Assembly (NCBI RefSeq): GCF_013167455.1
Contig: NZ_CP038328.1
Origin: Escherichia coli O157:H7
GTDB taxonomy: Bacteria; Pseudomonadota; Gammaproteobacteria; Enterobacterales; Enterobacteriaceae
Reading direction: 5' to 3' (one strand)
Length of the DNA stretch: 64,000 bases
Made by a program: the position numbers. How positions within the stretch are numbered: position 1 is the first letter of the stretch; each line of letters opens with the position of its first letter. Shown here piece after piece: positions 60,101 to 63,100 of this stretch.

Positions 60101-63100
60101 CAGTCAGGCGCGTACCGTTCAGATAAACGTAAGTAGCTGCGTTTTTTTCGGATGGAACAATTCCGTCAATGGCTGATGCGCGTAATAACAGTTCACCGCG
60201 AAAATCAATAAAACGGATAAATACACCTTGTGCATGCTCTTTGGTCATAAAGCACCTGTTATAAATCAGCCTGTTTAATAAAACTTTGCCCGCGAAGCAG
60301 ACGATCAACCGTGCGAAGTGCTTCGTATAATGTGAAATCCTGCCCGAAGTGATTGTCGCCGCAGTTCAATGCAAAAATGCGGTTCCCGGTAAACGGATTG
60401 CGTGGGCATTTGTGGACCACGATTCCAGCTTTCTCAATCAGCCAGGCATGTTCGCCGATTTGTTTTACAGCGTGGCCATCCGGTGTTGCATGCGTCTCGT
60501 TCAGGTTATAGCGACTGTTACTACGTGATGCACTGGTAGCGACGTGGTGTACATGGCGTTCTACGCCATTACGAAATTTGGAGTATGGATTATTAGCGTT
60601 TTTTTTCATGATGGTGCTCTGTTCATTGTTTTAGCTGTTAGCCAAAGCGTCTTTTAACATCGCCACAAGGTTTACTTCAGGCTTTTCCATTTTGGCGCGT
60701 TTGGGGCGGATAATAATTCGACCGTCAGCCAACATCTTTTTGCATGTATTAAGAGGGATACCTGTTATCTCTGCATATTTCTGCAGGGATACATAGGGGG
60801 CATTCACATTGATATTGATGGTTATACCTGACATCCCACTAGCCTCCTGATCAGGAAGATTTGTTTTGTTCTTTCTGGGTTAGCTCTAGGCCGCGAAGGG
60901 AGATCATGCGCGCCATGTTAGAGGATGAGCGTTGTTCTTTAGCTGCCATTTCATCAATGACGGCTCGCTCCTCGAGGGACAGCCGAAGTGCCAGTCTTGG
61001 ACCTGTGGCGGTGTTACGCGGAATGCGTGATCTGGTATCGTGAAGAACTTGTTTCATAGTGGTATATTGTGATCATCTAATAGCTCGTGAAATCATTTTG
61101 GTATCAAAAAAGATACCTGTCAAGGTTTTTGTATGAAAAATGATATTGGTCGGCGGTTGCGTGAGGAAAGGGAAAGATTGGGACTTAGTCAAGTTGCCAT
61201 GAGCGACATTGGTGGAGTCAAAAAGCTAACTCAGCTTAGATATGAGAAAGGAGATAGCTTTCCTGATGCTGCGTATTTGGCAGCGCTGTCTCGTTTTGGC
61301 CTTGATGTTCAGTATGTTGTGTTGGGAATTCACTCACCTGAAACTTATAACGATGATGAGCAGGAATTGATTACTCGCTTTCGAGCAGCTTCGTTAGATG
61401 TGAAAAACGCGGTGATTGGGGCTTTAAAAGGTGCGATCAGTGAAAAGGAAACTCAGCCATCAGGACGTGAGTTAAATATTTCTGGTGGTAATAACCGTAT
61501 CGCTGGTCGTGACTATAACGAAACTAAGGGTAGGTGATAGTAGGGAGGTGACATGGCCGTCAACTCAAACGGTTCAAACAATCGCGTTGCTGGGCGTGAT
61601 TTTCACGAAAAGAATATTCAGATAGAGCGATATGATGGTTCTCATACCGTCAATATCGCAATCCCTTCGAATAATGATGATGACGATCGCCCTTTGCTTA
61701 AGGCTCAGCGTAAGGAGCTAAATAGCTTGGTTGCTGCTATTGCAGAAGCTAGCAATACTGAAGCGTTTATTATTTGGCAAAAAGTACATGCGGAGATTGG
61801 TGTAGCTGGTATTGATGATATGACAGTAAATCAATATAAAACAGCGGAGAGTTTTCTGCATGCAATGCTTGAGCGATGTAAAGATCATGATGCCTGTAAG
61901 GCTCTTGTAAGTTTATTACTACGTAACAGTGAAGACTGTGGACTTCGACAAAAACTTCTGCGGTATTGCCATATCAATTTCGGTACAGGACGTTTAAACG
62001 ATCTTACTCGTTCTCAGTTACAGTCTGCATTGTCGTGGTTAGAGCAACAATCGGCATCAAGCCACATAGAGAGTTCGACCTTACCAGAAGTCCGACTTCG
62101 TGCTTCAGAATTAATCCGACTTTATCCAAAAGAAATAATATTCTTTATCTGCGTAGGGGTTTTGGTAGGCGGTGTCATTTCTAGGGCGTTTTTTAATTTG
62201 TAATCTTACTTGAGCTAAATTGAGGTAATGATATGAAAGTAAAAAAGGTTCAACTATTAGTTACTTTTTTATCTATGTTTTCTTTTTCCGCCGTCGCAAT
62301 GCCTTTTAAAACTATTGAACGTGAGAGTTTCAATGGGGTATGGCCATTTAATACTGATGAGGTTCAATTACAGTGTCTTGATGGTAATCCTTATGTGATG
62401 AATTTTGACGATAATAAGTTATATGCACTTACAGGTTTGGCTCGAATAAAAGGTAAAACATTTGGTGCGTTACCGTTAGATAACAATAATCCATTTTGGC
62501 TAGATAATGATGCCGCCCCAGGGTTAAAAAAGAGTCTGGGGGATGTCACTAAGGCTGCATTTGATTTATGTGATAAGTAACTAAAATGTCGGTTCGTAAG
62601 ATTCCATCAGGTAAATGGCTTTGTGAATGTTATCCCTACGGGGCATCGGGAAAACGCATTCGTAAACAGTTTGCGACAAAAAGTGAGGCGCTCTCTTATG
62701 AGCGCCGTTTAATGAATAGTAGAGTTGGAGACGAGTTTCAAGATGGTTCTGGTCCTCGTCTTTCTGAGTTGATTGCTCGTTGGTTTGAGATGTACGGTAA
62801 AACCTTGTCCTCTGGTGCAGAGCGCAAAGTCAAACTTGAGGCGATTTGTTCCAGGCTGGGAGATCCATTTGCTTCTCAGTTTGACAAAAATATGTTTGCT
62901 ACTTATCGGGAAAGAAGGCTATCAGGAGAATGGAATCCCAAGGGGAAGAAAAAACTTAGTGAAGCAACCGTTAATCGCGAGCAGTCATATCTACATGCTG
63001 TTTTTGCCGAACTGAAGCGCCTTGGGGAGTGGTCTGGTGAAAACCCCCTGACTGGTATTCGCAAGTTTCGTGAGGAAGAAAAGGAACTGGCGTTTCTGTA

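Follow-up and report, generated by a model that had tools for sequence, protein, structure and literature searches.

The 64,000-nucleotide (nt) stretch of the Escherichia coli O157:H7 contig NZ_CP038328.1 analyzed here (referred to below as the window) includes the switch region of a P2-like prophage (Peduoviridae, Xuanwuvirus-like) adjoining yecA. Genes for an XRE-type repressor, a 216-amino-acid (aa) protein with a predicted membrane anchor, a 115-aa DUF2511/YebY-like protein, and a tyrosine integrase (int) follow one another in this region (Table 1). The initial annotation had described the two middle genes as a same-strand cargo cassette between the repressor and int, and their open reading frames (ORFs) proved to be as described, all on the plus strand. 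The repressor ends in a short motif that recurs at the start of the 216-aa protein. These two copies, here called the tail (on the repressor) and the head (on its partner, the product of the next gene), change in step across distant P2-like and Mu-like phages.

Gene organization of the switch region

The gaps separating the repressor gene, the 216-aa gene, the DUF2511 gene, and int are 15, 29, and 5 nt, respectively, and no terminator-like sites were found on the plus strand among these four genes. The genes (i.e., repressor, 216-aa gene, cargo, and int) are therefore most likely transcribed as a single lysogenic mRNA, as judged from the sequence, and the previously suggested placement of the two middle genes in the lysogenic operon of the repressor agrees with this layout. 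In P2, the genes C and int share a lysogenic transcript. A strong Shine-Dalgarno sequence (GGGAGGTG) lies upstream of the 216-aa ORF. The G+C contents of the repressor, 216-aa, DUF2511, and int genes are 0.44, 0.41, 0.35, and 0.45, respectively, compared with 0.50 for the window; the two middle genes are AT-richer, as had been noted.

The repressor is composed of a helix-turn-helix (HTH) domain (aa ~5 to 55), a conserved helix (aa ~85 to 107), and a disordered C-terminal tail with basic residues at its end. It is annotated as a transcriptional regulator in RefSeq and in Escherichia phage 520873, and a search of PDB sequences with it gave no match. Homologs are present in Mu-like phages (B3 ORF18, BcepMu gp17, and KS10 gp13) and also in P2-like phages of Burkholderia and Ralstonia.

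Table 1. Features of the prophage switch region, with positions in the window (pLDDT, predicted local distance difference test; TM, transmembrane)
Feature	Position	Strand	Support
XRE-type repressor, 134 aa	61133-61537	+	ORF; Pfam HTH_31 (E = 7e-5); phrog_8 transcriptional regulator
Repressor tail motif LNISGGNNRIAGRDYNE, aa 114-130, then TKGR	61472-61522	+	pLDDT of ~34 in fused AlphaFold2 model
216-aa protein, predicted to be tail anchored, one Flk_N domain	61553-62203	+	PF27202; PRK10715; phrog_5825 (E = 8.5e-103)
Partner head motif VNSNGSNNRVAGRDFHE, aa 3-19 of the 216-aa protein	61559-61609	+	Within disordered aa 1-45
Flk_N helical domain, aa 47-175, predicted cytoplasmic	61691-62077	+	
C-terminal TM anchor, aa 192-215 of 216	62126-62197	+	AlphaFold2 helix; Kyte-Doolittle
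115-aa DUF2511/YebY-like protein, signal peptide (aa ~1-22), two conserved Cys	62233-62580	+	Pfam; PDB 7n0j
Tyrosine integrase, closing the plus-strand gene series, beside the host gene yecA	62586-63587	+	phrog_1 (E = 1.4e-76); RefSeq
Arc/RHH-like 68-aa ORF, divergent early gene	60851-61057	-	ORF; annotation of homologs in phage 520873 and RefSeq
Cox-like DNA-binding protein, divergent early gene	60631-60834	-	ORF; annotation of homologs in phage 520873 and RefSeq
Promoter-like site	61123-61095	-	

Matched motifs on the repressor tail and the partner head

The tail LNISGGNNRIAGRDYNE and the head VNSNGSNNRVAGRDFHE are identical at 10 of 17 residues. Their local alignment score is 62 (controls: mean, 14.5; standard deviation [SD], 3.2; maximum, 36), which bears out the earlier remark that the start of the 216-aa protein nearly repeats the end of the repressor. 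No third copy of the motif was found in a six-frame translation of the 64-kb window. At the nucleotide level, the two copies share 30 of 51 positions, and 6 of the 10 identical residues are encoded by different codons; conservation therefore acts on the protein and not on the DNA. Given these codon differences, neither a recent duplication of DNA nor gene conversion can account for the repeat in the window.

Tails and heads of related phages were scored by aligning the C-terminal 32 residues of the repressor with the N-terminal 32 of the partner. Cognate scores ranged from 37 to 79 in all of the 21 curated pairs (control, 14.5 ± 3.2). A matched motif was present in 27 of 28 distinct judgeable pairs from P2-like and Mu-like phages, the pairs judged being the 21 curated ones; B3, BcepMu, and KS10; five phage records; and the metagenomic loci L088 and L089 (related loci are cited by L numbers). 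A matching head opens the gene next to the repressor gene in B3, BcepMu, KS10, and the P2-like phages of Burkholderia and Ralstonia, with the exception of L083. At this locus (L083:1448-2526, Ralstonia phage YO027_3), the repressor has a tail-like sequence (QVINGGSNNVQIGSV...) at its end, and the gene that follows, which overlaps it, specifies a zinc-ribbon membrane protein that lacks a matching head. The repressor-partner gaps are mostly -4 to +19 nt, and the repressor stop codon overlaps the partner start codon in BcepMu, L070, and L071. Read-through or a split gene was also considered as a source of the repeat: the two genes are in frame in the window and in the first loci inspected, but 7 of the 21 curated pairs are out of frame, and some of them overlap, which excludes this origin.

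The motifs fall into approximately seven classes (e.g., NRVAGRDF, GQFAGRDIVN, VGQxVxGDV, SASGxGIxQV, and FHGxV), and tail and head belong to the same class in every matched pair. Examples of tails and heads, respectively, are ISVTGDGNRTAGRDFHE and IEVTGSNNIVAGRDFIE in B3, SQTFNAPISGGEFAARDIVNH and TQEFNNQIHDGQFAGRDIVNN in L070, QQFNGPVGTVTTGDVVN and QQFHGAVEQVAAGDIKN in L071, and GNMVASGSGITQVGSRVRI and GTMSASGFGIIQVAGDLSI in KS10. Over 19 lineages, the cognate scores summed to 869, which is 6.9 SD above the value for permuted pairings (mean, 518; SD, 51). When only the 12 lineages not belonging to the commonest class were considered, none of 100,000 permutations reached the observed cognate value. 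Since tail and head have been diverging for equally long in every lineage, the cognate excess cannot result from common descent alone, and the two copies, on this comparison of sequences, must evolve in concert. With DNA copying excluded in the window, protein-level selection for matching would be the simplest cause by which the correspondence is maintained.

The suggestion in the initial annotation that the repeat reflects a duplicated or swapped module was not upheld, given the conservation at the protein level and the joint changes of tail and head across distant phages. A related explanation holds that the repeat is a functionless remnant of a tandem duplication or of a recombination joint between immunity modules. 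The proximity of the two copies (merely ~90 nt apart) and the mosaic structure of the immunity regions, in which different HTH types are found on the same tail, would be in keeping with such a relic. However, we consider it extremely unlikely in view of the nucleotide identity and the synonymous differences described above, the retention of the motif in proteins that are otherwise 25 to 40% identical, and the fact that tail and head switch class together.

The motifs have a mean length of 18.8 aa. They are enriched in G (2.2-fold), N (4.0-fold), V (1.6-fold), I (1.4-fold), and Q (1.16-fold) and depleted in L (0.08-fold), P (0.29-fold), and K (0.67-fold). Pseudo-repeats of the motif occur in BcepMu gp18, P0154, and L069. 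Basic residues end the repressor tails in nearly every lineage, and both motif copies are predicted by AlphaFold2 to be disordered.

Conservation of the pair and diversity of the partners

A scan of genome contigs recovered 11 loci, and a single-protein scan of viral contigs recovered mostly near-identical copies. In every P2-like locus examined, the repressor gene was directly followed by a gene encoding an Flk_N domain, which is the domain of the 216-aa protein described in the next section. The hosts of these P2-like pairs were E. coli, Klebsiella, Enterobacter, Kosakonia, Mixta, Izhakiella, Serratia, Yersinia, Hafnia, and one Citrobacter genome bin. In Klebsiella prophages, the module is listed in 1158 blocks of the collection. 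Conservation beside repressors in other P2-like prophages, which had been considered for both middle genes, was thus found always for the 216-aa gene; the DUF2511 gene accompanied it in three lineages only (the window type, L054, and L064).

The repressor-then-partner arrangement is shared by the switches of the Mu-like phages B3, BcepMu, and KS10, where the partner genes are annotated as encoding hypothetical or membrane proteins. The partner bodies differ among lineages. Enterobacterial P2-like partners have a head, an Flk_N domain, and a C-terminal anchor, and KS10 gp12 has a head and an Flk_N domain without a TM segment. The partners of BcepMu (gp18), vB_SR4, and vB_FUB5a are composed of a head, half of an Flk_N domain, a TM segment, and a small two-cysteine periplasmic domain. 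The 122-aa Ralstonia partners have a head, a TM segment, and the two-cysteine periplasmic domain without Flk_N, and B3 ORF20 has a head and two TM segments, again without Flk_N. Constant across lineages are a repressor with a tail, a head on the next gene product, and, nearly always, a membrane anchor. Across these architectures, the head is modular and survives replacement of the partner body.

The two-cysteine domain follows an unannotated pattern, C-x-[YW]-[DGA]-G-x-x-Y-[ST]-[VL]-G-[SA]-[IV] ... C, which is kept even without Flk_N (L079:2863-3645, i.e., BcepMu gp18; L081:2460-3182; L082:2461-3210; L084:2535-2903; and L085:2533-2901). Its presence on Burkholderia and Ralstonia partners suggests transmembrane signaling in those lineages. 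The annotation of vB_SR4 gp25 as an "alpha/beta hydrolase" looks wrong.

The 216-aa protein and its relationship to Flk

Although no relatives of the 216-aa protein had been recognized in the initial annotation, the protein contains an Flk_N domain, as found in Flk, a flagellar regulator of the host. The NCBIfam Flk profile PRK10715 matched aa 37 to 166 over profile positions 20 to 149 of 339 (E = 8e-16), with a score of 58.2 bits that does not reach the curated cutoff of 353. PF27202 (Flk_N) is assigned to the near-identical cluster representative and to all close homologs of the 216-aa protein; these assignments were precomputed and were taken from the representative and the homologs. A search of the local Pfam library with the 216-aa protein gave no match because PF27202 postdates that library, and no match was found among PDB sequences. 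A weak match to phrog_6521, a "moron ... membrane protein" family, covers aa 5 to 109. At 50% identity, this small family comprises 90 representatives in a set of 1.84 billion proteins. Short members, nearly all of which have a C-terminal hydrophobic segment, include the 216-aa protein with its single Flk_N stretch, and relatives of 320 to 420 aa contain two such stretches.

In an AlphaFold2 monomer model built on a 43-sequence alignment, aa 1 to 45 are disordered (pLDDT of ~55, and 52 to 58 for the head motif), aa 47 to 175 form a helical domain (pLDDT of 94 to 98), and aa 192 to 215 form a terminal TM helix. This helix, the only hydrophobic one, lies at the extreme C terminus (Kyte-Doolittle maximum of 2.36 at aa 195), in agreement with the single C-terminal TM anchor reported earlier. 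The model thus depicts a predicted tail-anchored inner membrane protein with a cytoplasmic body.

Two further observations concern the family. In one Flk_N subgroup (L087:264-944 and P0162, P0164, P0185, P0189, and P0210), a helical extension of ~35 aa (DERLAKLAELLKDE...) precedes the head-like segment. In phrog_10002 (328 positions), the first half matches the Flk_N protein and the last third matches the lipoprotein encoded downstream of the L075 partner gene, a pattern that suggests fused gene calls or a genuine fusion in some phages.

In E. coli, Flk is well established as a tail-anchored protein (PMC6794478). The 216-aa protein likewise has an Flk_N domain, a C-terminal tail anchor, and a mostly cytoplasmic body. 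However, Flk (RflH), which regulates flagellar export specificity, is ~330 to 350 aa long and has two Flk_N copies and an N terminus that the prophage protein lacks. Unlike Flk, the 216-aa protein has an N-terminal head motif, is encoded by a prophage beside a repressor gene, and scores far below the equivalog cutoff. The shared domain and the tail-anchored architecture would be expected if the prophage protein mimicked Flk and, in the lysogen, changed how flagellar or other type III secretion systems switch substrates. We regard such mimicry as very unlikely, given the bit score, the single Flk_N copy, and the missing Flk N terminus. In addition, the module is very common in prophages of Klebsiella, a generally nonflagellated genus, and the B3 and Ralstonia partners keep the head even though they have no Flk_N domain.

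The DUF2511 gene and the cargo slot beside int

The 115-aa protein matches Pfam DUF2511 (PF10709) over aa 28 to 113 (E = 2.9e-6) and aligns with the solved structure of YebY (7n0j; E = 0.0027), the two cysteines being in register. It also has a signal-peptide-like N terminus and a match to phrog_2950, and its earlier description as a signal-peptide protein of the DUF2511/YebY type is therefore confirmed by the Pfam and 7n0j matches. The protein is carried by ~480 sequenced E. coli genomes (≥99% identity), and those listed are mostly O157:H7. YebY, which resides in the periplasm and contains a disulfide bond, is similar to the lantibiotic-binding protein MlbQ, and YebY homologs have been found between XerD-like recombinase and CI-type repressor genes in Enterobacteriaceae (PMC8689200). 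The signal peptide, the two conserved cysteines, and the Pfam and structure matches are shared with YebY/MlbQ. The genomic setting differs: the 115-aa gene does not belong to a yobA-yebZ-yebY copper operon or a lantibiotic cluster and is prophage cargo with a G+C content of 0.35.

Relatives differ in what lies between the Flk_N gene and int: at least 10 unrelated types of cargo occur in this slot. These include DUF2511; a 288- to 292-aa BRCT/WYL-like protein; DUF8087; a 201-aa secreted protein; a pair of 392 and 294 aa; and proteins of 87, 102, 126, 242, and 244 aa. The slot may also be empty. Because the third gene varies while the Flk_N gene stays, the DUF2511 gene is assigned to cargo and the Flk_N gene to the immunity region, and the two genes do not form the single cassette first proposed. 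On its gene content, the DUF2511 protein is best described as an exchangeable, probably periplasmic, YebY-like moron in a variable slot beside int, and the 216-aa gene is better annotated within the immunity region than as cargo.

In distant relatives, the equivalent slot contains a PD-Lambda-5_A gene (E = 2e-227, L070) or a TIR-TM gene (E = 4e-103, L071). At L070:1256-3569, which has no classifying marker genes, the partner gene is followed by the PD-Lambda-5_A gene and a D12 methyltransferase gene; at L071:4597-5862, in a Mu-like relative, it is followed by a lipoprotein gene and the TIR-TM gene. Holin and endolysin genes come directly next at both loci. The 392- and 294-aa pair (L057:4692-6853, IMG/VR UViG_2847235940_000003) and the 288-aa protein in the same slot of a Klebsiella locus (L003:8647-9513) have weak BRCT/NAD-ligase-like, WYL, and PADLOC candidate PDC-S48 matches, and these genes may be uncharacterized defense cargo. 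The int-to-primase interval has been described as a minor defense hotspot of P2-like phages (10.64898/2026.02.27.708500). This pattern of variable cargo and defense fits the Flk_N-to-int slot and not the constant 216-aa gene. The slot is a defined place in which to seek new prophage-borne defense or conversion genes, including that for the DUF2511 protein.

The initial annotation had proposed that the two genes form a defense or exclusion module, a reading that found partial support here. The slot beside int does hold known defense genes in relatives, but the 216-aa gene is constant, and no PADLOC-DB 2.0 family matched either protein at an E value of ≤0.1, in line with the earlier impression that the pair is not a named defense system. 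One might still suppose that the 216-aa protein, alone or together with the DUF2511 protein, acts in superinfection exclusion or abortive infection like lambda rexAB, the motif being incidental. The location of its gene in the lysogenic operon, its membrane character, the defense genes in the adjoining slot, and the weak phrog_6521 match would all suit such a role. Nevertheless, besides the lack of a PADLOC match, defense cargo is normally variable, whereas the 216-aa gene is fixed to one repressor family in P2-like and Mu-like phages. The DUF2511 gene is not co-inherited with it, and the covarying motif would be left unexplained. An exclusion function is therefore improbable in our assessment.

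Prophage context

The 2.7-kb stretch containing these genes recurs with 100% identity in many O157:H7 genomes; its identity to Escherichia phage 520873 (Peduoviridae, Xuanwuvirus) is 98%. Genes for a portal protein, terminase, GPO scaffold, P2-family capsid protein, and gpA-type replication protein lie to the left of the switch region. When the 216-aa and 115-aa proteins were compared with sequenced phages by tblastn, phage 520873 was the sole match. In its record (NC_049344, L002:4538-6579), the 216-aa and DUF2511 genes are unannotated, each aligns as three pieces, and the integrase is represented by two coding sequences. These broken genes suggest frameshift errors or a decaying copy.

Elsewhere in the window, Gly, Cys, and Leu tRNA genes occur at 42041 to 42342, and prophage tail genes (tape measure, sheath, and tube) lie beside them between 42000 and 50000. 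The tail genes are interrupted by copies of IS30 and IS1203, and the prophage therefore looks rearranged or defective. The layout of this part is unlike that of strain PV15-279. The homologous prophage of PV15-279 contains, between the gpA and portal genes (L001:2676-5415, the classical P2 hotspot), genes for a DUF4760 protein, a hypothetical protein, a "plasmid partitioning/stability" protein, and a ParM-type segregation ATPase, which together are unusual cargo for an integrated prophage. A gene for a "derepression protein" is located in the minus-strand early operon (L001:8759-8989, corresponding to approximately 57758 to 57988 of the window), with PF25738 assigned in the relatives L007 and L009. 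Its product may be an epsilon- or Tum-like anti-repressor and provide a second switch-off route for the same repressor.

A candidate two-protein immunity module

We propose that positions 61133 to 62203 encode a two-protein immunity module with motif-to-motif contact and that positions 62233 to 62580 are separate cargo, a reading to which we assign a probability of about 0.45. An XRE repressor with a disordered tail and a tail-anchored inner membrane partner would both be produced from the lysogenic operon. The repressor tail and the partner head would make direct like-to-like contact, probably by stacking of beta strands, so that the membrane partner captures the repressor or alters its state. 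The lysis-lysogeny switch would thereby be coupled to a membrane signal. As for direction, we can offer a guess: the partner could be an SOS-independent anti-repressor or sensor or, equally, a stabilizing tether.

Several considerations lead toward direct contact. Because the two peptides are identical and not complementary, either like stacks on like (i.e., in-register beta pairing) or both are ligands of a single common site. One Burkholderia cenocepacia strain harbors both BcepMu and KS10 (PMC2628397), and these two phages use different motif classes. A shared host factor as the common site is therefore unlikely, and cognate recognition fits better. In the whole B3 genome, no third motif-bearing protein was found (two copies only), so a common phage-encoded third protein is absent. 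Flk_N cannot be the common receptor because some partners do not have it. With these three candidates disfavored, direct tail-to-head association is favored, and the sequence comparisons as a whole suggest that tail and head contact each other.

The most specific form of a host-factor explanation is that the partner is a decoy, presenting the tail sequence as a competing substrate of a protease or chaperone (e.g., FtsH) and so protecting the repressor. In lambda, CIII protects CII from FtsH. Three features could be read in this way: tail and head alike are terminal peptides predicted to be disordered, the partner occupies the membrane, the site of FtsH action, and basic residues close the repressor tails of nearly all lineages. 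However, a conserved host factor predicts one motif per host, which conflicts with the two classes in one B. cenocepacia strain. The motif is C-terminal in one protein and N-terminal in the other, an unusual arrangement for terminus-specific degrons, and KS10 gp12 has no membrane anchor. We consider a decoy unlikely.

Other results weigh against the proposed contact between tail and head. Only 4 of the 12 tails outside the commonest class scored best with their own head, the matching being at the level of the class. As the lineages are related, the number of independent class changes is about six and not 19. Ralstonia phage L083 has a tail-like end on its repressor and no head on the next gene. 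A fused AlphaFold2 construct, consisting of partner residues 1 to 184, a 30-aa GS linker, and the repressor (18 paired alignment rows), left head and tail unstructured (pLDDT of 32 to 45) with no 1:1 docking or strand pairing, in a monomer run on a shallow alignment that is blind to oligomers. Finally, the "derepression protein" gene of the early operon may already be the induction route.

A RecA-type cleavage domain is missing from this repressor family, which includes the repressors of the well-known phages B3, BcepMu, and KS10. An always-adjacent partner with a coevolving end motif offers a concrete handle on how such repressors are switched off. Our survey of the literature on Flk and prophages, membrane-anchored anti-repressors, and BcepMu gp17/gp18 found no description of the repressor-partner module. 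The XRE repressor, the Flk_N domain, DUF2511, and the cargo slot are known parts; the linkage of a phage repressor and a membrane partner by matched motifs is the element that the surveyed literature lacks.

Comparison with known paired systems

Phage proteins that act on or accompany a master repressor are one point of comparison. Qtip of vibriophage VP882 gathers cI into foci, and lambda RexA and RexB are co-transcribed with cI. Like the 216-aa partner in the proposed module, these are small phage proteins that bind or sequester the master repressor (Qtip) or include a membrane protein encoded in the repressor operon (Rex). There is no relation in sequence or fold between them and the 216-aa partner, which is co-expressed with the repressor and not induced, and recognition in the present case would use a shared motif instead of a folded interface.

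A closer likeness is to amyloid signaling pairs, for which we compared fungal NWD2/HET-S, bacterial NLR/Bell (BASS1-10), and E. coli Bab/Agp (BASS11). Bacterial amyloid signaling motifs are ~20 to 25 aa long, rich in Q, N, G, V, and I, and poor in K, P, and L (Dyrka et al., 10.1101/2020.01.06.895854), and Bab/Agp is an amyloid-type defense pair (10.1101/2024.11.07.622273). In these systems, as in the repressor-partner pairs, the same motif is C-terminal on the first product and N-terminal on the second, and the genes are collinear and adjacent with a very short gap. Both groups have several motif classes that are matched within the pair, a motif of ~20 aa, and a composition with more G, N, V, and I and less L, P, and K. 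Also common to both are a modular motif on different bodies, occasional pseudo-repeats, and one membrane partner.

There are differences as well. Amyloid signaling pairs combine a Bell or HeLo effector with an NLR or TPR receptor, whereas an HTH repressor is combined here with an Flk_N or other membrane protein. Their output is cell death; the output expected here, with the C-terminal motif on a DNA-binding protein, is control of a transcription switch. The repressor-partner motifs stay low-confidence coil, with no beta structure, in both the monomer and the fused AlphaFold2 models.

By analogy with Bab/Agp and NLR/Bell, amyloid-like templating is a serious candidate mechanism for the contact. 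The more far-reaching version, in which the master repressor of many P2-like and Mu-like phages would be under prion-like templating, with clustered partner heads converting or trapping the matching tails, strikes us as rather doubtful. If it is true, the prophage would have a membrane-linked, SOS-independent input into induction or commitment, and the motif classes would be private channels that insulate co-resident prophages from one another. If the contact is amyloid-like, the use of short matched motifs would extend from cell-death immunity, as in HET-S and Bab/Agp, to the regulation of viral genes.

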